This document shows positions 4,624-64,000 of a stretch of 64,000 nucleotides of DNA, one piece after another; the first letter of the stretch is position 1; the number at the start of each line of letters is the position of its first letter. The translations under genes and the position numbers were made by a program. Origin of the DNA: a virus; the IMG/VR virus record IMGVR_UViG_3300030099_006944, positions 123,356 to 187,355 of that record; one strand, 5' to 3'. A model generated the notes under the pieces. It was not told the origin of the DNA, ran no database searches, and was given only the letters and a program-made list of their open reading frames with translations.

Positions 4624-4625
4624 AA

Positions 4626-26445: not shown

Positions 26446-26625
26446 ATGTTAAGAATTGTGAACGTTATTTTATTTATATCAGTGGTCTTGGGTATATATC
26501 TCACCACAGAGGTTGATGATAAATCAGAAAAACAAGAAGTGGTTGAAATCTATCCGGGTGATACCGCTGATGAGTATGAAAAAATAAAGGAGATTTTAGG
26601 GTCCGAAAAGGCTTCGACGGAGTAG
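26446..26625 (+). CDS. 59-aa single-TM protein overlapping tmRNA 5' end
   Basis: Hand-translated MLRIVNVILFISVVLGIYLTT...GSEKASTE*; GGAGG SD 26437-26441. Confidence 0.65.
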   Translation: MLRIVNVILFISVVLGIYLTTEVDDKSEKQEVVEIYPGDTADEYEKIKEILGSEKASTE

Positions 26626-26930
26626 AATCAAGGGGAGAGTGCATGCAGGGAAGATACGCCCTTAACAGTTCAAGTTTTATAAACGCAAACAATAATTTGT
26701 ATTTCGAAGAAGCCCTAGCGGCTTAATCGGGTGGCTGCTCCGAGCCATCTATCCAAGAGGAGCAAAACAACAGGACAGTTGTAAAAATCAAAACAACTCA
26801 ACGCAACAGGACGGTAAGCGTTGTTTTATGACCGTCTATCTTTCTGGTTGGAGAAATAATCAGATAAGCATGTGAACGACTCAAACTAAGACTATTGCGG
26901 ACGCGGGTTCAACTCCCGCCGGATCCACCA
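26599..26930 (+). ncRNA. ssrA: tmRNA
   Basis: Acceptor GGGTCCG/CGGATCC-ACCA with G3.U70, 5' TTCGAC motif, T-arm GCGGGTTCAACTCCCGC, tag frame 26685-26726 ANNNLYFEEALAA*. Confidence 0.95.
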
Positions 26931-26936
26931 AACATT

Positions 26937-27008
26937 GCGGGTGTGGCTCAGTGGTAGAGCATCGCGTTGCCAACGCGAGGGTCGTGGGTTCGAATCCCAT
27001 CACCCGCT
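26937..27008 (+). tRNA. tRNA-Gly(GCC), CCA not encoded
   Basis: GCGGGTG/CACCCGC acceptor, TCGCG-TTGCCAA-CGCGA anticodon arm, GGTTCGAATCC T-arm, U73. Confidence 0.95.
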
Positions 27009-27195: not shown

Positions 27196-28073
27196 AATAT
27201 CTATTACCTTTTTTATTAGCTTGCACGGAAGTGTCTATTAACAAAATACCAACAGATCCTGTTGATACATCGAAACCCATAGCGGATACCACAGAACCTT
27301 CACAGCCGGCCTCTGAGCCCTCTGTGGAGCCTATGGAAGGTATCGGAGGGTATGTACACTACTATCTTCGTCAAGTGGCTTGTCCGGCTTGTATGGGCGA
27401 ATCAAATGAGATTACGGTTGAGTTTGATGCAAGGTTTCACGATAGAACTTTTGATACCTACACAAGGCACATTCCCGAACAAGGTCAGTGCACCCAAAGT
27501 ATAACTCAGATATGGCCAAACTTACCCCTAATAGATATGGGATCAGAAATAAAAGCCAGAGCTAACAATTCGACTATTCATGCGTACCGAACAAGCCAAA
27601 ATAATTATTTTTATGCTTGGTATACAGATGCCTCTTATATAAGAGACACTGTACACTCTATATCTCGCGAGGATAACTATGAATTTGCAGAGTTCACATC
27701 GTTTCATGGTTTCGATTACATTGAGCCTTATGAGTTACGCTTTGTAGATCCTTCGTATGCTTTTGCTGCTCCGATATACCGTTCTGGTGCGACTTTCTGG
27801 TGGGCTCCCTATGGTACCAACACTACCTTTACAATAACGCTAGCAGTATATACTCCTGACGGCTCATCGTTGTTAGGTTATGTTGCCTGTTCAGGTGGTG
27901 ACTCTGGCATGATGACCGTTCCCGGACAATATTTGTCCTCTTATCCCTATGGGGCTCTTGTCGCTGTGCATATGGCTCGGCACAAAGTTGAGCTAGTACC
28001 ATGGGAAGAACAAAACACTTTCCTTGAAACACATATGGAGTGGGAAGTAATAGGAACAGGACATATAGAATGA
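27192..28073 (+). CDS. Putative lipoprotein
   Basis: MKYLLPFLLA-C lipobox-like, EPS-rich linker, CxxC. Confidence 0.65.
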   Translation: MKYLLPFLLACTEVSINKIPTDPVDTSKPIADTTEPSQPASEPSVEPMEGIGGYVHYYLRQVACPACMGESNEITVEFDARFHDRTFDTYTRHIPEQGQCTQSITQIWPNLPLIDMGSEIKARANNSTIHAYRTSQNNYFYAWYTDASYIRDTVHSISREDNYEFAEFTSFHGFDYIEPYELRFVDPSYAFAAPIYRSGATFWWAPYGTNTTFTITLAVYTPDGSSLLGYVACSGGDSGMMTVPGQYLSSYPYGALVAVHMARHKVELVPWEEQNTFLETHMEWEVIGTGHIE

Positions 28074-41591: not shown

Positions 41592-41924
41592 ATGCCCAAT
41601 AAATACGCGAAAGACACGAAGAAGTTCACATTTTATGCGAAGGATGATTTGCATGCAAAATTTAAGATACGCATGCAACACCACACCTTAACACAATCAG
41701 AATTTCTTCGCGCCTGCGTTCAAGCCGTTGTTGATCAGGATCCAACAATGGAATCCTTTATTGATGAATATAAGGAAAAGAACGGAAAGCAAAGTAAAAA
41801 GCAAAGATCCAAAATCAAAAAAGATCAAGAAGACTCGAAGGACTTGCTAGATTCTTTGGGTTTCGGTGATGGAGACATTGATTCCATCTTTGATCTAATA
41901 GCGAAAGAACACCCAGAAATTTAA
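41592..41924 (+). CDS. Putative ribbon-helix-helix DNA-binding protein
   Basis: KFTFYAKDDLHAKF...TQSEFLRACV. Confidence 0.5.
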   Translation: MPNKYAKDTKKFTFYAKDDLHAKFKIRMQHHTLTQSEFLRACVQAVVDQDPTMESFIDEYKEKNGKQSKKQRSKIKKDQEDSKDLLDSLGFGDGDIDSIFDLIAKEHPEI

Positions 41925-42618: not shown

Positions 42619-43002
42619 ATGTTAGAATATATTATCGGATTCACCTGTGGAGTGGTATTGTTTTATTTTTTGTCATATGTAATGGCATTAGGTCACTCTA
42701 TTAGCGTCCTAAAACAAACACAAAGAAGTTGTGCTGCTCTCTTTGTTGTTAGTGAACAGGGATTACATGAGGTTTTACACCTCAAATATTTGGCCATGGA
42801 AGAATCCGGCAGGTCTGAACAAAATATAACAGCACAAAAGTACATTGATCAAATGAGTATCGATAGCATTCGTAAAACAATCATGAGAAATTATGTTAGG
42901 GTCTTTCCGGAAAGCTATAAAAATGTTATGGAATATTCAACTTGGGAAGAAATGGAAGCGTATGTTAATACGGCCTTAAAACAAGGCGAAGATATATCAT
43001 GA
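42619..43002 (+). CDS. Hypothetical membrane-anchored protein
   Basis: N-terminal hydrophobic helix; GGAGG SD. Confidence 0.6.
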   Translation: MLEYIIGFTCGVVLFYFLSYVMALGHSISVLKQTQRSCAALFVVSEQGLHEVLHLKYLAMEESGRSEQNITAQKYIDQMSIDSIRKTIMRNYVRVFPESYKNVMEYSTWEEMEAYVNTALKQGEDIS

Positions 43003-52556: not shown

Positions 52557-52620
52557 GGTCAAAAAATGTCCGAAAAAGGAACAGAAAAGATTTGACAACT
52601 GAACCACAACGGGATACAAT
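52557..52620 (+). promoter_or_regulatory. Early-type promoter P0 with displaced palindrome
   Basis: GGTC-N7-GTCC 52557-52571; TTGACA-17-TACAAT. Confidence 0.8.
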
Positions 52621-52650
52621 ATAGTATAACCCTAAAATCAGGAGGACAAA

Positions 52651-52896
52651 ATGATAGAAGGATTATTGTACAGTTGCCGCTGGCGAACGAACCAGTGGAA
52701 CTATGATAACAACTCATGGGATCGTGGTTGGGATATGCTTATATTTATAGGAGTAGAGACAATCAATCGTGATGATGGAGTTGTGATAAATAACTATCGT
52801 TTCCACGATATAATCAATAACAAAAGCATCCTGATGGACAAAGGTCTTATCAGGCATTGCAAAGAAATCAAAGGAGATAGCCATGAGTGCGATTAA
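52651..52896 (+). CDS. Hypothetical protein
   Basis: GGAGG SD, 81 aa. Confidence 0.65.
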   Translation: MIEGLLYSCRWRTNQWNYDNNSWDRGWDMLIFIGVETINRDDGVVINNYRFHDIINNKSILMDKGLIRHCKEIKGDSHECD

Positions 52897-53140
52897 AAAA
52901 ATGAACCAAGAACTTAAAAAAATATTAGGCAGAGAACCAACGATCCACGAACAGATCGACATTCTTATATTGAAATCTATCAAAGATAGAGTACTAGAAC
53001 TCCAGCTAACATACCAGATAAACCCGAATGAAGAGTTGCAAGAGCAATATGAACGAGCAGTGCGCTGCATGCAAGAAGTACAGGATCGAAATCCCGAAAT
53101 CTTCGGAGGGATAGATAGCGATGGAGGTGACTATGAATAA
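52883..53140 (+). CDS. Hypothetical helical protein
   Basis: GGAG SD, 85 aa. Confidence 0.6.
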   Translation: MSAIKKMNQELKKILGREPTIHEQIDILILKSIKDRVLELQLTYQINPNEELQEQYERAVRCMQEVQDRNPEIFGGIDSDGGDYE

Positions 53141-53351
53141 CTTTAAGATCGGAGACTTTGTAAAAAGCGACACGGATGATTTGTTCATCGGGCTTATCGT
53201 AAGTGAAAATTACAAAGGCTTTGAGGTTGCTTGGGACGATGGGGACTTCACCTATGGTGAGGGCAAAGGTACAATGTTTCTCCATGAGATGAAGCCGAGC
53301 GATTGGACACCAGCACTCTACAAAGCATTTTCGGACTTTTTTTGTCCTTGA
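53133..53351 (+). CDS. Small SH3/KOW-like protein
   Basis: FKIGDFV...GLIV...VAW. Confidence 0.65.
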   Translation: MNNFKIGDFVKSDTDDLFIGLIVSENYKGFEVAWDDGDFTYGEGKGTMFLHEMKPSDWTPALYKAFSDFFCP

Positions 53352-53375
53352 TTTATTTTAACAACGTGATACAAT
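53333..53375 (+). promoter_or_regulatory. Early-type promoter P1
   Basis: GGAC-N7-GTCC, TTGATT-16-TACAAT. Confidence 0.8.
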
Positions 53376-53408
53376 TATAGTATAACCCAAACGACCTAGG
53401 AGGTCAAC

Positions 53409-53750
53409 ATGAAAAACATAAAAGAATGTATTCACTGCGGTGAAGAGTTTAGTTTACACTGCCCTAAAAAGCGACGAGTAGGTGGCAAGATCAACGAGTG
53501 TCCCGATTGCGTCGAGGAGCTGGGTCTTGAAATCAAGAGTAGAGTTCGTGCCTTCACTACTGGTGATGGTAAAATGTCTGCTATGCAGATCCTGCGCTTC
53601 GAGAATGAAGATGATGCTGACGCTTACGGCAAGACTTGGGAAGCCAACCGTGGCTGGAACAACCAACGTCGTGGCGGTCTTAACAACGTGGCTTTCTCCA
53701 AGGTTGGAGAGAACATCGGCAACTCTAATCACAAGGGGAAAGCATCATGA
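53409..53750 (+). CDS. Zinc-ribbon protein
   Basis: CIHC...CPDC. Confidence 0.65.
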   Translation: MKNIKECIHCGEEFSLHCPKKRRVGGKINECPDCVEELGLEIKSRVRAFTTGDGKMSAMQILRFENEDDADAYGKTWEANRGWNNQRRGGLNNVAFSKVGENIGNSNHKGKAS

Positions 53751-53905
53751 AATCAGGAGACTTGGTAATGACCAAAAGCACAAAAGAAATAGGTATCGTT
53801 GTCAGTGCATCTTCGACACACTGTGCAGTCTTTATTCACAAGAACAGGACGAAGAAAGTGAACCTAACATTCCGTATCCATAAGGATCTATTGGAGGTAA
53901 TATGA
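53747..53905 (+). CDS. 52-aa SH3/KOW-like protein
   Basis: Hand-translated MKSGDLV...IGIVV...LLEVI*. Confidence 0.7.
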   Translation: MKSGDLVMTKSTKEIGIVVSASSTHCAVFIHKNRTKKVNLTFRIHKDLLEVI

Positions 53906-54042
53906 AAGTAGGTGATTTAGTTTATTATGGCTACGACAAGTCTGTCGGTGTTGTCATAGAAGTTAAGGAAAATGGAGATTGCCGTTGTGTTTTCGATGGG
54001 ATAATCTATCTATGCGCCCAGCAATCATTGGAGGTAATATGA
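53902..54042 (+). CDS. 46-aa SH3/KOW-like protein
   Basis: Hand-translated MKVGDLV...VGVVI...SLEVI*. Confidence 0.7.
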   Translation: MKVGDLVYYGYDKSVGVVIEVKENGDCRCVFDGIIYLCAQQSLEVI

Positions 54043-54236
54043 AAACAGGTGACTTGGTATCTTGGTCTTTATCTTGGGTCGTGAGTTGTTCGGACGTTAA
54101 TAAAGAAATGTATCGTAACCAACTCGGTTTCATACTACGCAAGTCAGAAGATATAACAAACTGCTGGTTTGTGCTCTGGGATGATGGAAAAACAAGTGAA
54201 GTGCATAAAGATTATTTGGAGGTAATATGCGAATAG
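54039..54236 (+). CDS. 65-aa SH3/KOW-like protein
   Basis: MKTGDLV...VLWDDG...LEVICE*. Confidence 0.7.
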   Translation: MKTGDLVSWSLSWVVSCSDVNKEMYRNQLGFILRKSEDITNCWFVLWDDGKTSEVHKDYLEVICE

Positions 54237-54382
54237 GTGATCTAGTTAGGCATAAGGAACACCATGGTTACATGGGAATAGTAGTGGAACTCGGCTTTCG
54301 AGACATGCTTGTTGCTTGGCACGATGGAGAGTTATCTTGGACTTACAAAAGTCAGATGGAGGTGATAAATGAAAGTGGGTGA
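54227..54382 (+). CDS. 51-aa SH3/KOW-like protein
   Basis: Hand-translated MRIGDLV...VAWHDG...MEVINESG*. Confidence 0.7.
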   Translation: MRIGDLVRHKEHHGYMGIVVELGFRDMLVAWHDGELSWTYKSQMEVINESG

Positions 54383-54575
54383 TTTAGTTATGTGGATACA
54401 ACAAGACCACCATCATGGAATGATTGGGGTTATCGTAGATATAGAAACACCAGAGAGCAACCCAGCATTTAACAGAACCATGTATGATGTTCTGTGGGCT
54501 GATGGTGTTGTAGGGTTTGAACTCTACGCTAGCGAACTTATGGTGGTGGAAGATGAAGAAATCTCCACAGTTTGA
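54369..54575 (+). CDS. 68-aa SH3/KOW-like protein
   Basis: MKVGDLV...VLWADG. Confidence 0.7.
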   Translation: MKVGDLVMWIQQDHHHGMIGVIVDIETPESNPAFNRTMYDVLWADGVVGFELYASELMVVEDEEISTV

Positions 54576-54750
54576 GATCGGTGATCTCGTCGAGTTCAGA
54601 TATGACCTTTTATATCAACAGTTGGTCGGTATCGTTACCTATTACTATATGTACAACGGGCATTTGTGGTACAAAGTTCAATGGGCTAATGGCAAAGAAC
54701 AGGATATAGCCGAGATAGAGCTAAAAAAAGTAAAAACGGACAAAAAATGA
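54553..54750 (+). CDS. SH3/KOW-like protein
   Basis: FEIGDLV...VQWANG. Confidence 0.65.
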   Translation: MKKSPQFEIGDLVEFRYDLLYQQLVGIVTYYYMYNGHLWYKVQWANGKEQDIAEIELKKVKTDKK

Positions 54751-54780
54751 CCTTGCTTTTTCAGCAGGGTATGATACATT
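54738..54780 (+). promoter_or_regulatory. Early-type promoter P2
   Basis: GGAC-N7-GACC, TTGCTT-16-TACATT. Confidence 0.8.
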
Positions 54781-54811
54781 ATTAGTATAACCAACAAACA
54801 GGAGGTGTCCA

Positions 54812-55183
54812 ATGGGATACAGATCAGACGTTGCAATAGCAATACACAAAGACTTACAAGGTGATTTCCTCACCTTCCTCAACACAGAAGAACTCATGGC
54901 TGAAATCTTCGGAGATGACTCTTACTTTAGTTTAGACAAGGACTACAAAGGCGAAGGGCACTGGCTCTTTACAGCCGAGGACATCAAGTGGTACGCAACT
55001 TGGGATGAGTTCGCAGACATTCAGATGTTCGAGAAGTTTATGGACGCTATGGAAGAGGAAGAAGAGAAAAGAGAGAAGTATCGTTTCATCCGCATTGGCG
55101 AAGAACTCGAAGATATAGAGTATCGTGGCGATTGGTACGAAAGTGAGATCCATGTCAAGCGTGAAATACAAGTGGGGTGGTAA
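54812..55183 (+). CDS. Hypothetical acidic protein
   Basis: MGYRSDVAIAI..., GGAGG SD. Confidence 0.7.
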   Translation: MGYRSDVAIAIHKDLQGDFLTFLNTEELMAEIFGDDSYFSLDKDYKGEGHWLFTAEDIKWYATWDEFADIQMFEKFMDAMEEEEEKREKYRFIRIGEELEDIEYRGDWYESEIHVKREIQVGW

Positions 55184-55185
55184 TC

Positions 55186-55344
55186 ATGAATGTAGGTGAT
55201 TTAGTAAGATACAAAGATGATGATGACATCGGTGTTATCATGTGGATTGGTACAACCAAACTTAGTTATTATATTCAGTGGGCTGACGGCACAGATGGCT
55301 TCCACATAGCAAGCGAATTCGAGGTGATAAATGAAAGTGGGTGA
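55186..55344 (+). CDS. 52-aa SH3/KOW-like protein
   Basis: Hand-translated MNVGDLV...IQWADG...FEVINESG*. Confidence 0.7.
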   Translation: MNVGDLVRYKDDDDIGVIMWIGTTKLSYYIQWADGTDGFHIASEFEVINESG

Positions 55345-55495
55345 TTTAGTAAGTCCCAAGCACACAAAGTGGCTATTTGGTATTGTCGTTAGGCAACCAA
55401 TGGAACACGGAGTACTATGGATGATCCAGTGGAGCAATGAAAAGCGTAGTTTGGAACGAAAAGAGAACTTGGAGGTGATACATGGAAGTAGGTGA
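55331..55495 (+). CDS. 54-aa SH3/KOW-like protein
   Basis: Hand-translated MKVGDLV...IQWSN...LEVIHGSR*. Confidence 0.7.
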   Translation: MKVGDLVSPKHTKWLFGIVVRQPMEHGVLWMIQWSNEKRSLERKENLEVIHGSR

Positions 55496-55631
55496 TTTAA
55501 TTAAGAGGCGTAATAATGGAGACTTGGCGATAGTTCTCAAAATCTCCAAGCGGAGAGTGAAGATAATGCGTCTTTCCTGTGGAAACACCCAGTGCGTCTG
55601 GGATTATGAATATGAGGTGATAAATGGCTAA
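55482..55631 (+). CDS. 49-aa SH3/KOW-like protein
   Basis: Hand-translated MEVGDLI...YEVING*. Confidence 0.65.
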   Translation: MEVGDLIKRRNNGDLAIVLKISKRRVKIMRLSCGNTQCVWDYEYEVING

Positions 55632-55923
55632 CATATATTGGAACAAAGAGAAAGCCCCGTTTGACGAGGCAGAAGAAAAAATAAAACCCTTGGTGATAGA
55701 GTGTACGGATAGTGCCTTCTTCATTAAGAAACATTCGGGAGACTGCGGTACTACCATGAATGTATATGCGGAGACTGATGATCCAGAAGTCTCCTCATGG
55801 CATACTCGCCTCCCAGCCCAGTTCATGGGCTGGCGTGTGTTGATGTACAACTGCCCCACGGGCTACATAAAAGCGTTTCTTGACGTTAAGAAGGAGGATA
55901 ACGATGATGTTTCAGGTTGGTGA
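55624..55923 (+). CDS. Hypothetical protein
   Basis: GAGG SD, 99 aa. Confidence 0.6.
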   Translation: MANIYWNKEKAPFDEAEEKIKPLVIECTDSAFFIKKHSGDCGTTMNVYAETDDPEVSSWHTRLPAQFMGWRVLMYNCPTGYIKAFLDVKKEDNDDVSGW

Positions 55924-56101
55924 TTTAGTAAGGATTAAGTATGGCTTCACAGACAGCGACAGCAATGAGTTCGATTGGATAGGCATGATACTCTCCTACC
56001 GTGGCAAGAGTGGGCTAGACAACGAGGACGAGTGGATAGTGCAGTGGGCACATGCTGCACATGAAGCAGTCGAATACGGCTACTACTTGGAGGTAATATG
56101 A
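55904..56101 (+). CDS. SH3/KOW-like protein
   Basis: FQVGDLV...VQWAH...LEVI*. Confidence 0.7.
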   Translation: MMFQVGDLVRIKYGFTDSDSNEFDWIGMILSYRGKSGLDNEDEWIVQWAHAAHEAVEYGYYLEVI

Positions 56102-56247
56102 AAGTAGGTGATTTGGTCAGAATGACCCAGTATCACTACTGGGGTCTGGGTATAGTGGTGGCTCTCGATGAAGATGTAGCCGCATTTATCCGTTGGGCTG
56201 ATGGTCGCGGCGGGGGGAGATACATAGAAGATTTGGAGAAACTATGA
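56098..56247 (+). CDS. 49-aa SH3/KOW-like protein
   Basis: Hand-translated MKVGDLV...IRWADG...LEKL*. Confidence 0.7.
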   Translation: MKVGDLVRMTQYHYWGLGIVVALDEDVAAFIRWADGRGGGRYIEDLEKL

Positions 56248-56519
56248 TTAAAATAAACAGAAATAAAAAAGCCATTCAGATCGGGGAACTGGTCATTGTA
56301 AAGAAATGGGTAACAAACAAGGGCTATGTTTATTCCGACAGGATTGGAATAGTCATGGCTGATGAAGGTGTCGATGAACTCGGGCAAGAACAATGGGGTC
56401 GTTGGCACGTAGCGTTGGAGAATGGAGATTACATTGGCTGTTCGTCCAACGAGATCGAAGTAATACAGGAGGTGGACGATGGATCTGATAGAACTACAGC
56501 TCTCAGTGAGAACCATTGA
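56244..56519 (+). CDS. SH3/KOW-like protein
   Basis: IQIGELV...IGIV...IEVI. Confidence 0.6.
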   Translation: MIKINRNKKAIQIGELVIVKKWVTNKGYVYSDRIGIVMADEGVDELGQEQWGRWHVALENGDYIGCSSNEIEVIQEVDDGSDRTTALSENH

Positions 56520-56685
56520 TATATTGCAAAAGGTTGGCGTTTGGCATGTTGAGGACATCTTAGAGAAAATGAAGACAGACCCCACCAGTATGACACTAGC
56601 CTTGGCTAAAATAAATGCAAAAGACTTCGCCGAGATTACGGGGGAGATAGGAAAACGGACAAAAGTTGTCCTCGACAATCCTTGA
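56479..56685 (+). CDS. Stand-alone RNA polymerase alpha-CTD-like protein
   Basis: LIELQLSVRTIDILQKVGVWHVEDIL...KINAKDFAEI matches LELSVRxxNxLxxxGIxxVxDL pattern; GGAGG SD. Confidence 0.65.
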   Translation: MDLIELQLSVRTIDILQKVGVWHVEDILEKMKTDPTSMTLALAKINAKDFAEITGEIGKRTKVVLDNP

Positions 56686-56699
56686 AAACAGGATACATT
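56657..56699 (+). promoter_or_regulatory. Early-type promoter P3
   Basis: GGAC-N7-GTCC, TCGACA-16-TACATT. Confidence 0.8.
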
Positions 56700-56731
56700 A
56701 TTAACATAACCCAAACGACTTGGAGGTCGAA

Positions 56732-57703
56732 ATGAAAATATACGAAGATCGCGATAGCAATAAACGAACAACTCATTGCCCTACCTGTGGCAATGAAGGT
56801 CACATGTGGATGACTTGCCCTGTTCCAGCCAAAATGATGGAGTTAAAGAAACAAGGCAAAGAGCCTGACATAAGCCTGTTTTCCACTTGGTATCAGGGTT
56901 CTTACTCCCGTAGGGATACTAATGGTAAACTTGTTTATCACGACCGCATTTTTAGCCAAATGAGATCAGCCTACGACAAACAACAACGTCGGATAGAGTA
57001 CAGAAAAGAAAAGAAAGCCCGTAAAGAACGGCTCTACGGCAAACCTGCAAAGCGTAAAGTTTCTTGTGGGTTCTGCGGAGAGACTGGGCATAACCGTAGG
57101 CACTGTGATCTAATGGTCAACTTTGTTGATGATCTCGAACGAGCCTCTCAGAACTATCGCAAGCAGTTCTACGAGCGTTTTGTCAAAGGTATGGGCTTCG
57201 CCGAAGGTGCTCTACTCAGCTTAAGTGCAAGTCATTTCATGATTAACAACCGATGGATAGAAGATTGGTCTGGTATTGGAGTTATCACTAGAATAAGTTG
57301 GGAAGATGTTAACATGGGTCTAACTATGAATAGTTGGGATTACAAATCCACTTTGGAAGTGGACTGCCTTATCGATGGAGAAACCTATACAATAAAAAAT
57401 CCCTTTTCCCACCTAAGCGACAAAGCACTCAACGGCGATGTAGCTGATCTGTTCAGCAGCGGTAGCAGATGGGGTGCTCGAATAGACAGCGTACTAGCAC
57501 CTAGCGAGAACATTCCTTCGGAAGAATGGTTTAACGATGGTTACACCGAGTGTTGGGAGTGGATAGCAAAGAACAAATCTTTGTCAGATGTTTCAGCCTA
57601 CCTATCTCCCCTGATAGCCAAGTGGCATCCATCCCGTAGAGGTCGCAATGCAGGAAAGTTGAACTACCGATTGTCCCAGTATGGCTATAAAAGACCAAAG
57701 TAG
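56732..57703 (+). CDS. Double CCHC zinc-knuckle protein (paralog A)
   Basis: CPTCGNEGHMWMTC and CGFCGETGHNRRHC. Confidence 0.8.
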   Translation: MKIYEDRDSNKRTTHCPTCGNEGHMWMTCPVPAKMMELKKQGKEPDISLFSTWYQGSYSRRDTNGKLVYHDRIFSQMRSAYDKQQRRIEYRKEKKARKERLYGKPAKRKVSCGFCGETGHNRRHCDLMVNFVDDLERASQNYRKQFYERFVKGMGFAEGALLSLSASHFMINNRWIEDWSGIGVITRISWEDVNMGLTMNSWDYKSTLEVDCLIDGETYTIKNPFSHLSDKALNGDVADLFSSGSRWGARIDSVLAPSENIPSEEWFNDGYTECWEWIAKNKSLSDVSAYLSPLIAKWHPSRRGRNAGKLNYRLSQYGYKRPK

Positions 57704-57745
57704 GACATTTTCTGTCCTTGCTTTTTCCGAATACCATGATACATT
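57703..57745 (+). promoter_or_regulatory. Early-type promoter P4
   Basis: GGAC-N7-GTCC, TTGCTT-16-TACATT. Confidence 0.8.
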
Positions 57746-57775
57746 TATAGTATAACCCAAACAGCGGAGGACAAA

Positions 57776-58003
57776 ATGCTGGTAGAAGTTGGAGATATGA
57801 TATATTGGTTAGATGGTGCTGGTGAAACCGACATAGGGTGGGTAGTTTCTGTGGAAAGACGTAGTCCCCTCGGATACGGCGAACTAGAAAACCTCATTCA
57901 TATAAGGTGGTTATTCAAGGAAGAACGCAAGAAGCGCATCTGGGAACAAACTATTAAGGAAAACAGTTTTATAACACTAATAAAAGGAGGTCAGCATGGC
58001 TGA
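57776..58003 (+). CDS. SH3/KOW-like protein
   Basis: VEVGDMI...IGWVV...IRW. Confidence 0.65.
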   Translation: MLVEVGDMIYWLDGAGETDIGWVVSVERRSPLGYGELENLIHIRWLFKEERKKRIWEQTIKENSFITLIKGGQHG

Positions 58004-58277
58004 ACCAATGGACAAAATAGAAGTAATAATGAAAACTGCCAAAATGCTGGCAGATGAAAACCGCGGAGAATGGTCAGGTGATGTTCATGAGTTTGCCACA
58101 GCAAGCGCATATATCACCTCTGACGAGCGTTTGTGGCTGACGAGCCATGATGTTAAGGTGTTCCACAAAGAACTCAAAGATGGGGCTTTTGTGAGCGAAT
58201 ATGCCTATGTTTCAGCCTCATATGCAGATGGGCAACCTCTGCTAGTCGTAACAGATGTAGACACAGGGAAGGTGTAG
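57996..58277 (+). CDS. Hypothetical protein
   Basis: GGAGG SD, 93 aa. Confidence 0.6.
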   Translation: MAEPMDKIEVIMKTAKMLADENRGEWSGDVHEFATASAYITSDERLWLTSHDVKVFHKELKDGAFVSEYAYVSASYADGQPLLVVTDVDTGKV

Positions 58278-58278
58278 C

Positions 58279-58485
58279 ATGTACAGATACAAAATAGGGG
58301 AACTGGTCGAACTGTCTGCGGCTGGTCGGAAAAGAGATCACAACGACAAGGTTTATGACATGATAGGAATGGTTCTCAGGATAGACAACATGGAAAAATA
58401 CCCCTACATTATCCAGTGGTTCGGAAATGTTCCATATGGAACATTTCCGATGAAAGAATATGAGATCAAACGGGTTCGAGGATAG
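58279..58485 (+). CDS. SH3-like protein, paralog of 60354
   Basis: GELVELSAAGRK...PYIIQW...YEIKR. Confidence 0.7.
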   Translation: MYRYKIGELVELSAAGRKRDHNDKVYDMIGMVLRIDNMEKYPYIIQWFGNVPYGTFPMKEYEIKRVRG

Positions 58486-58502
58486 CGAGTGAATAGCAAA
58501 GC

Positions 58503-58545
58503 GGACATTTTTTGTCCTCGACAAATCGTCGGAACGTGATACATT
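58503..58545 (+). promoter_or_regulatory. Early-type promoter P5
   Basis: GGAC-N7-GTCC, TCGACA-16-TACATT. Confidence 0.8.
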
Positions 58546-58576
58546 ACTAACATAACCCAAAACAACGGAGGCAACA

Positions 58577-58840
58577 ATGCCAAAACGTAAACCAAAAATG
58601 ACTGATTTAGAGGCTACAATGATAGCTGAAGGCGCACAGGAAGCAGAAAGCGATGAGCAATACATAGCCGCTTGGCAACATCTTATAGACACGGGACTTG
58701 CATGGTCTTTGCAAGGTTTCTTCGGTCGCACCGCTTCTGTTATGATACAGAACGGCTTGTGTTACATGCCTATCAAGAAGCAACCTAAAAAGCCAAAGTC
58801 CACAGGTGGACAAACCCCTAGAACTCCAGAGGAAAAGTAA
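58577..58840 (+). CDS. Hypothetical phage protein
   Basis: WQHLIDTGLAWSLQGFFGRTA; GGAGG SD. Confidence 0.7.
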   Translation: MPKRKPKMTDLEATMIAEGAQEAESDEQYIAAWQHLIDTGLAWSLQGFFGRTASVMIQNGLCYMPIKKQPKKPKSTGGQTPRTPEEK

Positions 58841-58841
58841 A

Positions 58842-59738
58842 ATGAATATATATAACAACGATGGAAAATCATCCAGCAGACGAAAATCAAAATGTTCCTA
58901 CTGCCGAGCAGAAGGGCACAACGCAACCGAGTGTCCCCGTGTAGCCGAGGACTATGCTTGGTTCTCCCAGTCCCCTCCCGTGATACCCATAGGGGTAAGT
59001 AAGTCTACTGCTACCTGCCAATGGTACAGCAACCCGAAGTATTGGGGAGAGTGGTATCAAAAGTGCATTGACGCTCATGCAAAGCAAGAAGCCGCTAAAA
59101 AGAAAATCAAGTCCTCTCCTGCTGGGAGTGCTAGGTCAGCCCCCAAGTGTGGGTTCTGTGGCTCGATACACCACAACCGCCGCAACTGTGATGCTATGAC
59201 AGACTACACAGCCGATGCTATAGCTGCTAATCGAAACTGGCGAAGGGCTTTCTATGAAAAGTTTGTACAAGAAATGGGTATCTCCGAAGGAGCGTTGTTG
59301 AATGTTGCACAAAAGCAAGGATATGGCAACCCCGACAAAGAGACAATCGCTGTCGTTACAGCAGTCAACTGGGATGAACTGTCGTTATTCTGTGGTTCTC
59401 CTAACACCAGCGGATACTGCTATCGTGACGAGAACTACAAGCAGTATCTCAAAGTCACTGTTCAAATAGGGAGCGACACTCATACCTTGAACTTTGAGAA
59501 AGGCATTGATCACCGTATATCCAACAAAACCAAGAGGAACTTGGTCAAGTTCTCGGGACAACGATACGGCTGGGGCAATCCGCATTTCATATCAGTACTC
59601 TCAGCAGCACCAACTCCCCTTGGTGCGGAGTGGATAAATGAAGGGCATGCCAAGGCTATGGAGTTCTTAACGAAAAAACGCTCCAAAGCAAAACTCGATG
59701 AAGCTGATGTGACCGACCTTATCAAACTATGGCTGTAA
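58842..59738 (+). CDS. Double CCHC zinc-knuckle protein (paralog B)
   Basis: CSYCRAEGHNATEC and CGFCGSIHHNRRNC. Confidence 0.8.
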   Translation: MNIYNNDGKSSSRRKSKCSYCRAEGHNATECPRVAEDYAWFSQSPPVIPIGVSKSTATCQWYSNPKYWGEWYQKCIDAHAKQEAAKKKIKSSPAGSARSAPKCGFCGSIHHNRRNCDAMTDYTADAIAANRNWRRAFYEKFVQEMGISEGALLNVAQKQGYGNPDKETIAVVTAVNWDELSLFCGSPNTSGYCYRDENYKQYLKVTVQIGSDTHTLNFEKGIDHRISNKTKRNLVKFSGQRYGWGNPHFISVLSAAPTPLGAEWINEGHAKAMEFLTKKRSKAKLDEADVTDLIKLWL

Positions 59739-59742
59739 AATC

Positions 59743-59785
59743 GGTCATTTTCTGTCCTCGACAAATCTTCAAATCGTGATACATT
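59743..59785 (+). promoter_or_regulatory. Early-type promoter P6
   Basis: GGTC-N7-GTCC, TCGACA-16-TACATT. Confidence 0.8.
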
Positions 59786-59816
59786 ACTAATATAACCCAA
59801 ACAACAGGAGGCTCTT

Positions 59817-60014
59817 ATGGACTACCAAACTCGAAATGGAGAACAGGCTGGTGACCTTGTTCACTGGACTGACTACACCGCTAACTACTTTGAAGATCCT
59901 CAGGATTACATTGGAATTATCCTAGACTACTCCCCTAGAGAGGACATGTTCATTGTTCTCTGTGAAGGAAAGCAGTGCTCTTGGCTTGCTTGGCAATGTG
60001 AGGTGGTGTCATGA
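59817..60014 (+). CDS. SH3/KOW-like protein
   Basis: AGDLV...IGIIL...CEVV. Confidence 0.65.
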   Translation: MDYQTRNGEQAGDLVHWTDYTANYFEDPQDYIGIILDYSPREDMFIVLCEGKQCSWLAWQCEVVS

Positions 60015-60172
60015 AGATAGGCGATTTAGTAAAAGGCAAGAAGAACGAAATACTCGGCTATGTAACGAACAATCGGATCTCTTATGGGGAAAAATGGGTC
60101 GTAGTCTATTGGCTCAAAGTAGAACTCCAATCAATACAGCATATCGACGACTTGGAGGTAATATGCAAATAG
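60011..60172 (+). CDS. 53-aa SH3/KOW-like protein
   Basis: Hand-translated MKIGDLV...VYW...LEVICK*. Confidence 0.7.
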   Translation: MKIGDLVKGKKNEILGYVTNNRISYGEKWVVVYWLKVELQSIQHIDDLEVICK

Positions 60173-60366
60173 GTGATTTAGTAGATGATGGGTTTGGTTG
60201 CTTCGGTGTAATCACTGCGCTTGGATGGATTTTTCCTGAGAGTGTAAGCGGAAAGATCGCGGCTTATCATGTCCACTTCCCAACAGATCCCGCCCTCAAC
60301 GGGTGGTATGAATACAATGACTTAAAACTTATTTCCCGAACTGTGGAGGAAACATGCAAAAAATAA
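60163..60366 (+). CDS. SH3/KOW-like protein
   Basis: MQIGDLV...FGVIT. Confidence 0.7.
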   Translation: MQIGDLVDDGFGCFGVITALGWIFPESVSGKIAAYHVHFPTDPALNGWYEYNDLKLISRTVEETCKK

Positions 60367-60569
60367 AAAATGGAGAACTGGTCGAACTTTCTTCAGCTGG
60401 TCGAAAAATGAAACAGAACGATGAGGTGGTAGGGCTGTGGGGCATGGTCATGGAATACGACAGTACAAATCGACACCCTTATAGAATACAGTGGTATAAA
60501 GCCGATGGAACTACAAAGAAGTTCCCTATGGCTCGATATGAAATCAAAAGATTTAGAGGTGTGAAATGA
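60354..60569 (+). CDS. SH3-like protein, paralog of 58279
   Basis: GELVELSSAGRK...PYRIQW...YEIKR. Confidence 0.7.
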   Translation: MQKIKNGELVELSSAGRKMKQNDEVVGLWGMVMEYDSTNRHPYRIQWYKADGTTKKFPMARYEIKRFRGVK

Positions 60570-60742
60570 AGGTTGGAGATTTAGTGAGATATGGTGGAAG
60601 CAAAGATTGCTTGGGGATTGTCACGAGGGTCGTAACATCAAAAGCAGTTGACAGAAGCGCATGCGCTGTACGCTGGGCGAATGGAGTGACAAGTCACCAT
60701 TCAACAAAGTGGCTCATCCCCGTGAAGCCGGAGAACAAATGA
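60566..60742 (+). CDS. 58-aa SH3/KOW-like protein
   Basis: Hand-translated MKVGDLV...LGIVT...VRWANG. Confidence 0.7.
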   Translation: MKVGDLVRYGGSKDCLGIVTRVVTSKAVDRSACAVRWANGVTSHHSTKWLIPVKPENK

Positions 60743-60746
60743 AAGC

Positions 60747-60789
60747 GGTCATTTTCTGTCCTTGACTTTTTCTCACAATCGGATAGATT
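60747..60789 (+). promoter_or_regulatory. Early-type promoter P7
   Basis: GGTC-N7-GTCC, TTGACT-16-TAGATT. Confidence 0.75.
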
Positions 60790-60819
60790 ATTATTGTAAC
60801 CCAAACAAACGGAGGTCTT

Positions 60820-61011
60820 ATGGACTACCAAATCGGCTCAAAACTAAAAGTAAACTTTTCTGGAAAGACAGAGATTGTCTATGTTATAGAAAAGAGTGAT
60901 AACATCTTCGACACAGGCTCTAAGGGATTTGTAGCGTACATCGAGTGTGATGGCTACACTGTTGACTGCTGGGCTTATGACTTTGATATATTGGAGGTTC
61001 TATGCAAGTAG
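60820..61011 (+). CDS. SH3-like protein
   Basis: YQIGSKL...ILEVL; GGAGG SD. Confidence 0.6.
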   Translation: MDYQIGSKLKVNFSGKTEIVYVIEKSDNIFDTGSKGFVAYIECDGYTVDCWAYDFDILEVLCK

Positions 61012-61187
61012 GGGATTTAGTAAAATGCGCTTTGGATATCTATGGAATAGGTATTGTTATCAAAACTGGGGTGAAAGTAGGCTACAGGCAAAGAATAAAA
61101 GTCCAGTGGCTCAATCCTCCCGAATGGCTCTTGACGAGTGGCGGGAACATAGCCAGCCACTTTCCCAGTAACTTGGAGGCAATATGA
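61002..61187 (+). CDS. SH3/KOW-like protein
   Basis: MQVGDLV...IGIVI...VQW...LEAI*. Confidence 0.7.
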   Translation: MQVGDLVKCALDIYGIGIVIKTGVKVGYRQRIKVQWLNPPEWLLTSGGNIASHFPSNLEAI

Positions 61188-61405
61188 TTTTTAATGTAAC
61201 AAAGTACGTTTATGTACTCCAAATACGATATAGCGGTAATGAGGACGATGTTTATGTTTTCTCCACAAGAGAAAAGGCAGAAGCAATGGTCTATGAGTTC
61301 TTTGAGCACATCGAAGAACCGAGAATGAAACTCGATGACTTTGAGGAATACTTATTCTCTCAGGACATTGGCTACTTTACTATTGAAAGACAAGAAATAC
61401 AATAA
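61184..61405 (+). CDS. Hypothetical protein
   Basis: VYVL...VFSTREKAE pattern. Confidence 0.65.
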   Translation: MIFNVTKYVYVLQIRYSGNEDDVYVFSTREKAEAMVYEFFEHIEEPRMKLDDFEEYLFSQDIGYFTIERQEIQ

Positions 61406-61415
61406 GGAGGCTCTC

Positions 61416-61613
61416 ATGAGCAATCAAATAAAACTAACAATCGATATATCCGATGAACTTTTGAATAAAATAATAACCGTGATAGCCCTGTCTGGTGCTA
61501 CTCCCCCAACCCCGATGGGCGGTGTACCTATGGTAATGCAGAAAAGCCCAGCTAAAGAACCAGAGCGTCCTTCTATGGGCTTCCAGCCTCCAACAAAGGA
61601 AGGTGACAAATGA
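61416..61613 (+). CDS. 65-aa protein with Pro-rich tail
   Basis: AGGAGG SD before ATG 61416. Confidence 0.6.
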   Translation: MSNQIKLTIDISDELLNKIITVIALSGATPPTPMGGVPMVMQKSPAKEPERPSMGFQPPTKEGDK

Positions 61614-61792
61614 CCCCTTTTGAGAAAGCCGCCTACAACGTCAAGCAGTTGGCTATAAGACTGAGCCTGTATCAGTTAATGTTACAGACAGTCGAAGACA
61701 CCAAGGACTTAGATGAAAAAGAGGCTGATTTAGTGTGGGAAGTTATTTTGGCAATGCTGGAAGCCTCCGACCTTGGGGGAGAAATCAACTAG
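61610..61792 (+). CDS. Hypothetical helical protein
   Basis: ATGA overlap, 60 aa. Confidence 0.55.
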   Translation: MTPFEKAAYNVKQLAIRLSLYQLMLQTVEDTKDLDEKEADLVWEVILAMLEASDLGGEIN

Positions 61793-61793
61793 T

Positions 61794-61846
61794 GGACATT
61801 TTTTGACCCTTTTTGACTTGACAAATCAGCTAGAACCTGATAAGCT
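61794..61846 (+). promoter_or_regulatory. Early-type promoter P8 with displaced palindrome
   Basis: GGAC-N7-GACC, then TTGACA-17-TAAGCT 9 bp downstream. Confidence 0.7.
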
Positions 61847-61878
61847 ATAGATATAACCCAAACAGATGGAGGTCGAAA

Positions 61879-62577
61879 ATGACCATTACCGTGAAACAAT
61901 TAGTTAAAGCCGCCGAAAATGCTAACAAACTCGGCAACCTTCGCGATTGCAGTACCCTAGCAGACTTGGCTGGTAGTGTTAAGAAGTGGGGGAAACTCAC
62001 CTCTCGTCAAGCCGAGTTCGCAGCGGCTCTTATCGAGCGCAACTCAAACGAGAAGGCTAGTAAGATTGATGAAGAGCGTGAGAACCACCGTATCAAGTGG
62101 CAAGAGGATGGTGCTTATCGCGAATGGGTTCTGTTCTTGGCTACATTCTTTGCTACTTCTGGACAGACAGCATATCAGCACCATATCCACAACAGGCAGC
62201 GCAATGCTCGTAGGGTTCTCCAAGCCTCCCGTGATGCGGAAGGTGGTGTACCTAGCCTCGATGATTGTAATCGCTTGACCACTTCCAAGTTAGCCCCAAG
62301 ACTTCGAGATACTTTTGAGAAGCCCCTACTCTACTCCGTAGGTGACCTAGTACAGGTTCGTGCTAGTGAGTTGCGCTACGGAGAAAGAGCCAAAGGCTTG
62401 GGAGAGCAAATGGGCTGGATCATAGACACCAACGCTCGCAACGTCCATCGTGTCGCGACTTATAGCAAGACCAAGGGTGGAACTCGGATCTACAAAGTTA
62501 TGTTCCCTTCGGGAGAACAGTACCGAGAAGAACGACAACTTAAACTTGTATCCAGAAAGAACCACAACAAGGAGTAG
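61879..62577 (+). CDS. Hypothetical protein with C-terminal SH3-like domain
   Basis: YSVGDLVQV...MGWII near C-terminus. Confidence 0.65.
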   Translation: MTITVKQLVKAAENANKLGNLRDCSTLADLAGSVKKWGKLTSRQAEFAAALIERNSNEKASKIDEERENHRIKWQEDGAYREWVLFLATFFATSGQTAYQHHIHNRQRNARRVLQASRDAEGGVPSLDDCNRLTTSKLAPRLRDTFEKPLLYSVGDLVQVRASELRYGERAKGLGEQMGWIIDTNARNVHRVATYSKTKGGTRIYKVMFPSGEQYREERQLKLVSRKNHNKE

Positions 62578-62579
62578 CC

Positions 62580-62762
62580 ATGGAAATAGGAACTTTAGTT
62601 ACCCACATCCACGATCAATACGAAGGTATAGGGATAGTGATACATGACGACCAACGAGAATACACAGAGGGCGAGAAATACTCAATGGTTACAGTCCATT
62701 GGCTCGATGGCGTTGGGGTTGGTCTTTACTGGACTGATGAATTGGAGGCAATATGCAATTAG
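62580..62762 (+). CDS. SH3/KOW-like protein
   Basis: MEIGTLV...IGIVI...VHWLDG...LEAI. Confidence 0.7.
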   Translation: MEIGTLVTHIHDQYEGIGIVIHDDQREYTEGEKYSMVTVHWLDGVGVGLYWTDELEAICN

Positions 62763-62968
62763 AACTTGGACAGCTTATCATAGACGCACACGAAGGCTAC
62801 CGAGATACAGGCGTAGTTATCGAAATCTACGAAGATTGCTATGGTGACAACATTTACAGCATTTTTTGGGTTTGTCCTCGGGATAGAGGGCACTACACCA
62901 CTACCCTAGCATACACAGAAGAAGAACTCGATATGGAATACTCCCACTGCTTCGAGGTCATACGATAA
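62753..62968 (+). CDS. SH3/KOW-like protein
   Basis: LGQLI...TGVVI...IFW...FEVI. Confidence 0.65.
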   Translation: MQLELGQLIIDAHEGYRDTGVVIEIYEDCYGDNIYSIFWVCPRDRGHYTTTLAYTEEELDMEYSHCFEVIR

Positions 62969-62969
62969 C

Positions 62970-63012
62970 GGACATTTTTTGTCCTTGACTTTTCACCACA
63001 AAATGATACATT
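62970..63012 (+). promoter_or_regulatory. Early-type promoter P9
   Basis: GGAC-N7-GTCC, TTGACT-16-TACATT. Confidence 0.8.
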
Positions 63013-63043
63013 ACTTATATAACCGAAACGACTGGAGGACATT

Positions 63044-63220
63044 ATGTCGTACAAATGTAGATCACCCTGCAAATCTTCGAAAAAGAAGAAACAACCCAAA
63101 GAGCGGAACTGGTTGGCAGTTCGCGCATTTCAAAGAAGCGGTGCTGGTGTTCACACCGATAAAAAAAAGAAACGCAATAAACGTGCCTGTCGAGGCAAAG
63201 TCAAGCAACCAAACTATTAG
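63044..63220 (+). CDS. 58-aa highly basic peptide
   Basis: Hand-translated; GGAGG SD; RNWLAVRAFQRSGAGVHTDKKKKRNKRACRGK. Confidence 0.7.
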   Translation: MSYKCRSPCKSSKKKKQPKERNWLAVRAFQRSGAGVHTDKKKKRNKRACRGKVKQPNY

Positions 63221-63229
63221 GAGTTAACT

Positions 63230-63514
63230 ATGTTAGCAAATCAACTTATCTCTCTTCTCTCATTTCAGTCTTTCACTCGTGGTTCTCGTAAAGACGATAT
63301 ATCCTTGAACCCTGCCAGTATTCAATATATAACAACTGATAGCCGCCCTGTAAACACCGAAGGTGGTACATTCTATGCGACAGTTATTCATCTTGCGAAT
63401 ACTTCGATCAAAGTAGCCCAAAGCAGAGAGTTCATCGAGTTCCAAGTAAATCGGTCTAGAGAACCTGAGCAAGAATATATTCAGGATAGATCCCAACTCG
63501 CCGCTGCTAAATAA
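63230..63514 (+). CDS. FlbD-like small protein
   Basis: ISLNPASIQYI...TVIHL...VAQS..FI. Confidence 0.5.
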   Translation: MLANQLISLLSFQSFTRGSRKDDISLNPASIQYITTDSRPVNTEGGTFYATVIHLANTSIKVAQSREFIEFQVNRSREPEQEYIQDRSQLAAAK

Positions 63515-63518
63515 AAAC

Positions 63519-63561
63519 GGACATTTTTTGTCCTTTACAAATCCCTCCAACGTGATACATT
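63519..63561 (+). promoter_or_regulatory. Early-type promoter P10
   Basis: GGAC-N7-GTCC, TTTACA-16-TACATT. Confidence 0.75.
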
Positions 63562-63656
63562 ATAGTTGTGAGGGAGAGATAAACACTCTTTCTTTTTTCA
63601 ATCACTATTTATTATATAACCCGTCCTTTCGAGGACACTTCTAATGGAGGTCAATC

Positions 63657-64000
63657 ATGGCTATTGACTTTAAGACACTCAACTCTGTACTTCCTTTCAT
63701 TCTTGACGCTAAGTTCCCTGTTCTTATCCGTGGTCGGCACGGTATCGGTAAATCCGCTATCGTATATCAGATTGCAAAAGACCGTGGTCTGCCTGTCATT
63801 GAGCGTCGTGCCTCTCAAATGACCGAAGGTGACTTACTTGGTCTACCGAAGGTAGAAGGTAACGTCACAAAGTGGCTTGCTCCCGAATGGTTACACCAAG
63901 CATGCAATGAGCCAGCAATCCTATTCCTCGATGAAGTAGACCGTGCAACTATGGAAGTTCGCCAAGGTATCTTCGAGTTGTGCGACAGCCGGAAGATCGC
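63657..64000 (+). CDS. MoxR/AAA_5-type ATPase, partial at window end
   Basis: Hand-translated; Walker A GRHGIGKS, EGDLLGLP, Walker B LFLDEVDR; GGAGG SD. Confidence 0.85.
   Translation, partial: MAIDFKTLNSVLPFILDAKFPVLIRGRHGIGKSAIVYQIAKDRGLPVIERRASQMTEGDLLGLPKVEGNVTKWLAPEWLHQACNEPAILFLDEVDRATMEVRQGIFELCDSRKI

Follow-up and report, generated by a model that had tools for sequence, protein, structure and literature searches.

A palindrome held at helical-turn distances from a class of weak sigma-70-type promoters in a distant T4-like phage, a candidate operator

The stretch of DNA analysed here (the window, 64,000 nucleotides) makes up the final 64 kb of a phage record of 187,355 bp in IMG/VR, IMGVR_UViG_3300030099_006944 (positions 123,356 to 187,355; the complete record is referred to as G000). 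Between positions 52557 and 63533 of the window lie eleven copies of a short palindrome, GGWC-N7-GWCC (where W is A or T), and each of them has a sigma-70-type promoter downstream. The palindrome starts a few bases after the stop codon of the upstream gene, and the promoter is followed by a C/A-rich leader (ATAACCCAAAC), a GGAGG and a start codon, in that order. This association of palindrome and promoter is real, statistically strong and conserved throughout a clade of related phages. The eleven units, all on the plus strand and in window coordinates, are as follows.

Unit P0, 52557..52653 (+): palindrome 52557-52571 (GGTCA-A5-TGTCC), a 20-bp A-rich spacer, -35 box TTGACA 52592-52597, a 17-bp spacer, -10 box TACAAT 52615-52620, leader, GGAGG, ATG 52651
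Unit P1, 53333..53411 (+): palindrome 53333-53347 (GGACT-T5-TGTCC), abutting -35 TTGATT 53348-53353, a 16-bp spacer, -10 TACAAT 53370-53375, ATG 53409
Unit P2, 54738..54814 (+): palindrome 54738-54752 (GGACA..TGACC, central A.A mismatch), abutting -35 TTGCTT, -10 TACATT 54775-54780, ATG 54812
Unit P3, 56657..56734 (+): palindrome 56657-56671, abutting -35 TCGACA, -10 TACATT 56694-56699, ATG 56732 (323-aa open reading frame, ORF)
Unit P4, 57703..57778 (+): palindrome 57703-57717, abutting -35 TTGCTT, -10 TACATT 57740-57745, ATG 57776
Unit P5, 58503..58579 (+): palindrome 58503-58517, abutting -35 TCGACA, TG-extended -10 TACATT 58540-58545, ATG 58577
Unit P6, 59743..59819 (+): palindrome 59743-59757 (GGTCA..TGTCC, T.T mismatch), abutting -35 TCGACA, -10 TACATT 59780-59785, ATG 59817
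Unit P7, 60747..60822 (+): palindrome 60747-60761 (T.T mismatch), abutting -35 TTGACT, -10 TAGATT 60784-60789, ATG 60820
Unit P8, 61794..61881 (+): palindrome 61794-61808 (A.A mismatch), a 9-bp spacer, -35 TTGACA 61818-61823, a 17-bp spacer, -10 TAAGCT 61841-61846, ATG 61879
Unit P9, 62970..63046 (+): palindrome 62970-62984, abutting -35 TTGACT, TG-extended -10 TACATT 63007-63012, ATG 63044
Unit P10, 63519..63659 (+): palindrome 63519-63533, abutting -35 TTTACA, -10 TACATT 63556-63561, a long leader with a 9-bp hairpin and a T-run (63570-63604), and a MoxR-type ATPase ORF running from 63657 across the record junction

The palindrome is far more frequent in the window than its base composition would predict, with 13 matches to GGWCNNNNNNNGWCC as compared with a mean of 1.29 and a maximum of 4 in 100 shuffles of the window sequence, none of which reached 13. 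A preliminary description, made from the letters of the sequence, had placed its eleven copies at 52557, 53333, 54738, 56657, 57703, 58503, 59743, 60747, 61794, 62970 and 63519, and these coordinates are exact; it had noticed none in the first 52 kb, where we found two further matches, at 8728 and 27924. Both are located inside long ORFs, no promoter lies downstream of either, and their number is within chance expectation.

The anatomy given in that description also stood up, in its details, to re-reading in context. Nine copies abut a -35-like hexamer (TTGATT, TTGCTT, TCGACA, TTGACT or TTTACA), followed by a 16-bp spacer, so that these palindromes end 22 bp ahead of a -10 box reading TACATT, TACAAT or TAGATT—often with a TG in front. 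The two displaced copies, 52557 (offset 20) and 61794 (offset 9), are paired with a perfect TTGACA and a 17-bp spacer. The centre of the palindrome is an A- or T-tract in either orientation, and changes in the half-sites break pairing, with a mismatch at the W position in five of the eleven copies. A leader of the ATAACCCAAAC type precedes GGAGG, exactly or nearly so, in ten of the eleven units. For the abutting copies, moreover, the distance from the start of the palindrome to the start codon is constant, at +73 to +76. The unit at 63519 is the exception as regards the leader, which is longer and different (63562-63656); a stretch of it, CAATCACTATTTATTA, is conserved with a related genome (G003, see below), and this leader may serve the MoxR-VWA gene pair behind it as a second promoter or an attenuator, or encode a small RNA.

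The array does not end with the record. The last 42 nt of G000 (window 63959-64000) match genome positions 1-42 at 41/42 identical positions, within the gene for a MoxR-type AAA ATPase, and this terminal repeat indicates that the assembly is circular and that the block of ORFan genes is continuous over the record junction. Five further palindrome units follow across the junction (genome positions 788-7267), which brings the whole array to 16 units in a single block of small ORFs of ~18.7 kb. The units at genome positions 7253 and 6659 have atypical, structured leaders, and the promoter at 6659 is similar in appearance to the others and has no palindrome. Within the window, the first gene of unit P9 (63044-63220, plus strand) encodes an extremely basic 58-aa product, rich in Lys, Arg and Cys.

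To place these observations in a wider context, relatives of G000 were collected by a pattern scan of IMG/VR with follow-up searches, which yielded three complete genomes (G001, G002 and G003) and two partial records (G005 and G006). At least these five relatives share the architecture of palindrome and promoter, with 10-25 copies per record, even though the median protein identity to G000 is 70% for G003, 54% for G001 and 51% for G002. With a stricter form of the pattern, GGWCA-N5-TGWCC, the four complete genomes scored 17, 25, 17 and 13 hits, of which all but two (70 of 72) fall within the early ORFan region. The two partial records carry 10 and 18 copies. Strict copies outside the ORFan block were seen at window positions 27924-27938, in one of the long ORFs mentioned above and without a promoter, and at genome positions 42635-42649, 36 bp ahead of a TATAAT box upstream of a gene and out of phase; both are compatible with chance, as ~0.4 copies are expected per genome. 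We also observed tandem palindromes 92-104 bp apart in G001 (locus L029, reverse complement, 1317 and 1421), where the first palindrome lacks a promoter of its own, and in G002 (L030, 3058 and 3150), where a short transcript from the first promoter would directly enter the next unit.

Over G000 and its relatives, 99 sites were available for an analysis of the coupling between palindrome and promoter. The offset between palindrome and -35 box is 0 in 62 sites, 9-10 in nine, 19-20 in 25 and 30 in two, with no other value, and the single remaining site has no promoter. Expressed as the distance to the -10 box, the series reads 22/23, 32/33, 42/43 and 53 bp—that is, ~10.3 bp per step—and, on the assumption that the -10 box occupies -12 to -7, the centres of the sites fall at about -42, -52.5, -63 and -73. 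Such an arrangement, in which 98 of the 99 sites have a phased offset and so lie on the same helix face with respect to the core promoter, is expected of activator sites. The nine 9-10-bp spacers are unrelated to one another in sequence, so length is the property that is kept.

The position of the palindrome also goes together with the quality of the -35 box. None of the 33 abutting copies of G000, G001 and G003 has a perfect TTGACA, G006 has a single one that does, and the spacer of abutting copies is mostly 16 bp; of 20 displaced copies, 18 have TTGACA, and here the spacer is 17 bp. The most extreme situation is that of G002, in which all 17 palindromes abut and the place of the -35 box is taken by TGGNNN (TGGACT, TGGATA or TGGCNN). 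This hexamer fails at the best-conserved position of the -35 element, and in most copies its TGGAC is itself a GGAC half-site. Where promoters of G002 have no palindrome, 21 of the 22 matches listed (~16 distinct promoters) read TTGACA, which indicates that the polymerase of its host uses an ordinary -35 box with which the palindrome class dispenses. The core promoters of the palindrome class are characterized by an imperfect -35 box when abutting, by TGGNNN throughout the G002 copies and by a -10 box of the form TACAYT, and they may be defective without an activator.

The palindrome-free promoters form a second class that is conserved in G001-G003. G000 contains roughly two dozen of them, near-consensus in sequence and none with a palindrome; they consist of A-rich upstream DNA, AC-TTGACA-AAC, a 17-bp spacer and then GTTATATTAT (TATATT) or TATAAT, and they are mostly found ahead of genes for replication and nucleotide metabolism. 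Examples from the window are listed here.

Palindrome-free promoters, window 12726-46400: for example 12726, 12892, 13256, 15910, 17074, 20544, 25435 and 29087
Palindrome-free promoters, further examples: 32116, 33121, 35190, 37033, 40558, 42551 and 46366

Since this near-consensus class lacks the palindrome, the palindrome marks a separate and intrinsically weaker class, with a TACAYT -10 box and, where it abuts, a weaker -35 box and spacer. That the palindrome promoters are the early ones is an assumption, and the label is used here in that sense.

An inverted repeat of this size could in principle act as RNA structure or as a protein site, and 71 copies were available to distinguish between the two. 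Four of the five stem pairs are constant over all 71 copies and, as they never vary, are uninformative in this respect. The sole variable pair (positions 3 and 13) is A/T in 44 copies, T/T in 13, A/A in 13 and T/A in one; it is hence mismatched in 26 of 71 copies (37%), with no sign of covariation (Fisher p = 0.27). When folded, the 15-mer has a median energy of -4.6 kcal/mol, and 26 of 71 copies reach only -1 kcal/mol or weaker. A T-run after the stem is likewise inconsistent, as 29 of 71 copies have 0-2 T in the next 8 nt, and a lenient terminator scan of the coding strand passed two of the eleven window copies; the G+C-rich, stable stem followed by a U-run that defines an intrinsic terminator is therefore absent. 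What is conserved is sequence rather than structure, across genomes with 51-70% median protein identity: apart from the one variable pair the arms are constant, only A or T occupies positions 7-9 in 70 of 71 copies, and the flanks extend the symmetry, with a C before the palindrome in 59 of 71 copies and a G after it in all but one of the copies scored as displaced (19 of 20)—the only copies counted for the latter, since no T is imposed there by the -35 box. The full symmetric site accordingly measures ~17 bp, C-GGWCA-n-WWW-n-TGWCC-G. Taken together, the mismatched stems and the missing covariation bear out the earlier suggestion of a protein-type site; a function as a hairpin appears very unlikely on these grounds, and the site bears the marks of a probable target for a two-fold symmetric protein, which would read two major grooves across a narrow A/T minor groove.

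The phage in which this system is found is an uncultured, distant member of the T4 superfamily. Its genome encodes T4-type terminase, portal, capsid protein, sheath, gp19, gp25, gp32 and prohead protease, together with a DnaE-type polymerase, GroEL, ribonucleotide reductase and a tmRNA. The latter is a one-piece molecule (window 26599-27008; Rfam 103 bits; tag ANNNLYFEEALAA) with a tRNA-Gly(GCC) directly after it, and the Rfam search of the window returned the tmRNA and one tRNA and nothing else. When the array region and a core region were compared with 50,697 phage records by megablast, no match was obtained. The closest cultured phages by terminase and capsid protein are Flavobacterium phage immuto (~48% identity) and Microcystis phage Mel-JY01 (44-48%), and the palindrome array is absent from both genomes. 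Among the 64 early ORFs, the Pfam hits are limited to the MoxR-type AAA protein and a VWA/metallopeptidase protein.

In the search for the host, a GroEL scan of genome contigs found nothing, and relatives of the terminase TerL (64-75% identity) were located on contigs in eight metagenome-assembled genomes (MAGs) of discordant taxonomy, including Flavobacteriaceae (twice), Legionellales, WOR-3 (a 2.85-Mb 'chromosome'), Acidiferrobacteraceae, Isosphaeraceae and an Aenigmatarchaeote; in the five of these MAGs that were checked, the palindrome occurs at background frequency. These placements look like phage contigs that were mis-binned, and in view of the discordant taxa no host call was made. The occurrence of GGAGG everywhere, together with TTGACA/TATAAT promoters, would argue against a host among the Bacteroidota.

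We further looked for a protein that could bind the palindrome. A comparison of 33 small proteins conserved in the four genomes with Pfam and PHROGs revealed no transcription factor. One 110-aa protein, encoded at window positions 41592-41924 (plus strand) and conserved in all four complete genomes (39-75% identity), resembles the ribbon-helix-helix (RHH) family: its N-terminus shows a KKFTFY strand and two helices, followed by a lysine-rich linker and a conserved acidic C-terminus (IFDLIA.EHPEI). A dUTPase-like ORF immediately precedes the gene, which lies ~1 kb beyond a palindrome-free promoter. The protein has more than 600 metagenomic relatives, including some from Tara Oceans, from which the group of phages that carries it can be taken to be marine and common; it has no homologue in the 50,697 phage records, and a profile search against PDB sequences was empty. 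The hits obtained are all sub-threshold—NikA-like proteins, ParG and RelB, but also phi29 p4 (E = 0.005)—its atlas neighbours lie at 0.90-0.91, and the AlphaFold model, with a pLDDT of 60, is too poor for a fold search. Moreover, the DNA-facing residues of the strand vary between subfamilies while the palindrome stays constant, which makes the protein a weak candidate only, and we consider it quite unlikely to be the palindrome binder. Two other candidates were rejected: a mimic of the alpha C-terminal domain (alpha-CTD) of RNA polymerase at 56479-56685, which had no RNA_pol_A_CTD hit, and the MoxR-type ATPase as an NtrC-like enhancer-binding protein, for which there was a weak Sigma54_activat cross-hit and, in the joined sequence inspected by eye rather than by profile, no C-terminal Fis-type helix-turn-helix.

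Drawing from these observations, we propose that the palindrome is the operator of a protein that aids RNA polymerase at promoters of a class II/class I-like kind, and we would give this proposal about an even chance of being right. A sequence-specific protein with two-fold symmetry (dimeric, or a dimer of dimers), from either the host or the phage, would bind the ~17-bp operators of a dedicated class of host sigma-70-type promoters, always on the same helix face with respect to the promoter, and help RNA polymerase to bind or to open the DNA. From a site at about -42 it would contact the -35 box/sigma region 4 in a class II-like manner; from about -52.5, -63 and -73 it would act through the alpha-CTD or a DNA bend, in a class I-like manner. 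The promoters would be built weak—with a TACAYT -10 box, with an imperfect -35 box and 16-bp spacer where the site abuts, and in one relative without a real -35 box—and each would be part of a fixed-length cassette comprising stop codon, palindrome, promoter, C/A-rich leader, GGAGG and ATG. About 16 such cassettes would drive the small ORFan genes of the 18.7-kb hyperplastic region. We favour a protein that contacts and helps RNA polymerase because the phasing, the -35 compensation and the case of G002 all fit with it. The claim in the preliminary description of activator-dependent, class II-like promoters therefore holds as far as the geometry and the weak -35 boxes of the abutting copies go, with a class I-like arrangement added. 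Anatomy, phasing, conservation and the lack of selection for a hairpin are plain from the sequences; binding by a protein, the positive sign of regulation and its timing are what we infer from them. Three findings go beyond that description: the palindrome-free promoter class, the continuation of the array over the record junction, and the likeness to a published type of cassette of T4-like phages (PeSL, see below).

CRP, FNR and lambda cI at PRM are established examples of activators at class II and class I promoters. The palindrome class resembles their targets in that a two-fold symmetric site lies at about -42, abutting a sub-optimal -35 box, or further upstream by steps of ~10.3 bp, and in that the -35 box is poorer the closer the site. 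Differences exist as well: the half-sites and their 5-N5-5 spacing match no site of the CRP/FNR family, a position at about -52 is also used, and activation is in our case predicted. The middle promoters of T4, which depend on MotA and AsiA, are similar in being a second sigma-70-dependent class that combines an upstream protein site with a sub-optimal or missing -35 box. However, their box is asymmetric and located at -30, whereas the palindrome is at -42 or further upstream, and neither a MotA nor an AsiA homologue is detectable in this phage.

Several points weigh against an activator. The abutting -35 boxes match three to five of the six consensus positions and many -10 boxes are TG-extended, so the palindrome promoters may fire unaided. 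No HTH_8 (above noise), GerE, Sigma70_r4, HTH_3, MotA (MotCF) or AsiA domain was detected in the phage, and the 64 early ORFs gave no hit to a DNA-binding family in Pfam. If the protein is encoded by the phage, these promoters could not be the very first to fire. Paralogous duplication inflates the counts of sites. A site overlapping the -35/UP region is, in addition, also the classic position of a repressor, and RHH proteins of the Mnt type are mostly repressors.

A shut-off repressor is accordingly the alternative that we take most seriously, as possible though unlikely. A phage protein made after infection, e.g., a Mnt-like RHH tetramer, would block sigma region 4 or the alpha-CTD and silence the whole ORFan block together, while the palindrome-free replication promoters stay on. 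Multi-operator regulons of phage repressors are known from P1 C1, phiC31 c and L5 gp71; 62 of the 99 copies of the site adjoin the -35/UP region or overlap with it, and the only recognisable candidate for a sequence-specific DNA-binding protein that is conserved in all four complete genomes is the RHH-like one. The palindrome, furthermore, has the same outer boxes and spacing as the annotated mnt operator of P22, GGTC-N7-GACC, and RHH dimers recognize boxes of 4 bp with A/T-rich spacers in between (PMC3413123). Mnt itself has a single operator with a G/C-rich centre and represses; RHH proteins in general can activate as well as repress, as described for AmrZ (PMC3325190). A repressor would leave the strict helical phase of the copies at -52, -63 and -73 unexplained, together with the avoidance of a consensus -35 box at abutting promoters and the non-canonical hexamer of G002, and promoters that are strong until repressed should have consensus boxes, as the palindrome-free class has. 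The same geometry might instead reflect a nucleoid protein of the host, of the Fis type, which would be a sub-case of the proposed activation and would couple the ORFan block to the growth state of the host. Fis activates from about -41 and -71 through the alpha-CTD, and a site that is invariant across phages with ~50% protein identity is what a conserved host protein would lead one to expect. The 15-bp core fits the high-affinity consensus of E. coli Fis, GNNYAWWWWWTRNNC (PMC3302801, PMC4784862), with G/C ends, pyrimidine-purine steps at +/-3-4 and an A/T centre, and with positions 1, 4, 5, 11, 12 and 15 invariant or nearly so. Yet positions that Fis does not read (G at -6 and W at -5) are invariant too, the +/-8 flank is C/G where E. 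coli Fis prefers T/A, and at +/-2 a G or C stands in 36 of 142 cases (13/71 copies at position 6 and 23/71 at position 10). In the five MAGs checked, which come from the set of discordant taxa, the motif is moreover at background frequency, and we regard Fis-type binding as rather improbable.

The remaining alternative concerns the promoter-early stem-loop (PeSL) cassettes of T4-like phages, which contain an inverted repeat directly before a sigma-70 early promoter, DNA rich in A/T on the upstream side, a Shine-Dalgarno sequence and a start codon; PeSLs are concentrated in ORFan-rich hyperplastic regions, where they terminate transcription and mediate cassette shuffling by recombination (Arbiol et al. 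2010, PMC2839356; Comeau et al. 2014, PMC4122927). The units described here share many of these traits: they are intergenic composites, many per genome, in an ORFan-rich region (16 units of promoter, Shine-Dalgarno sequence and start codon in 18.7 kb), in which the repeat stands immediately before a sigma-70-type promoter with A/T-rich DNA ahead of its -35 box, the Shine-Dalgarno sequence and the start codon are conserved, and boundaries of indels between close relatives coincide with the units. In keeping with this, nine of 36 ends of homology blocks between G000 and G003 fall within units, as compared with an expected 7.9% (p = 0.002), a link to insertions, deletions and replacements that is confounded by the intergenic location of the units. 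The palindrome could then be a PeSL-type stem-loop which, as RNA or single-stranded DNA, would weakly terminate or attenuate transcription coming from the cassette upstream and would serve as a patch of homology for shuffling, with no dedicated protein involved, and its place a few bases after a stop codon would suit such a role. Published PeSL stems, however, are stable (poly-G/poly-C or A3-4G3...C3T3-4) and terminating, whereas folding predicts no stable terminating stem-loop for the present repeat, which has a 5-bp arm, an uncompensated central mismatch in many copies and an inconsistent T-run, is conserved in sequence and is locked to its promoter in helical-turn steps. Phasing and -35 compensation would, in addition, be meaningless for a terminator. 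We therefore judge a stem-loop function decidedly improbable; a role of the units in recombination is compatible with the proposed operator and need not be counted for its rival. Given that the repeat is short, mismatched, conserved in sequence and phased, we file the element as a kind of PeSL in which a class II/I-type operator replaces the terminator stem.

A more specific version of the proposed activation can be formulated, albeit as a tentative one that we hold to be somewhat doubtful. In this version, a dedicated phage protein, so far unrecognised for want of detectable similarity to MotA, AsiA or the standard helix-turn-helix families and possibly delivered with the DNA, would turn on 10-25 deliberately weakened sigma-70 promoters per genome from a 17-bp palindrome at -42, -52, -63 or -73, and would have fully replaced the -35 box in one lineage.

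The element described here falls between PeSL cassettes and activator-dependent promoters, both of them known kinds. Activation is the best reading available, a proposal as regards its sign, its timing and its factor. T4-type phages are the textbook case of the stepwise takeover of host RNA polymerase, and the MotA/AsiA switch is limited to close relatives of T4; how the distant, marine T4-like phages order their early genes is the question addressed by the present findings. The clade offers a testable regulon, with two classes of sigma-70 promoters in one genome, one of them marked by a conserved operator whose geometry is that of textbook activators, and its 99 natural variants serve as a ready mutational series. 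The 17-bp site can be used as bait for the binding factor, the origin of which would help to name the host. Our results also suggest that some PeSL 'stem-loops' may be protein sites instead of terminators and, if a dedicated phage activator does act at these promoters, it would represent a novel way in which T4-type phages solve the early/middle switch.

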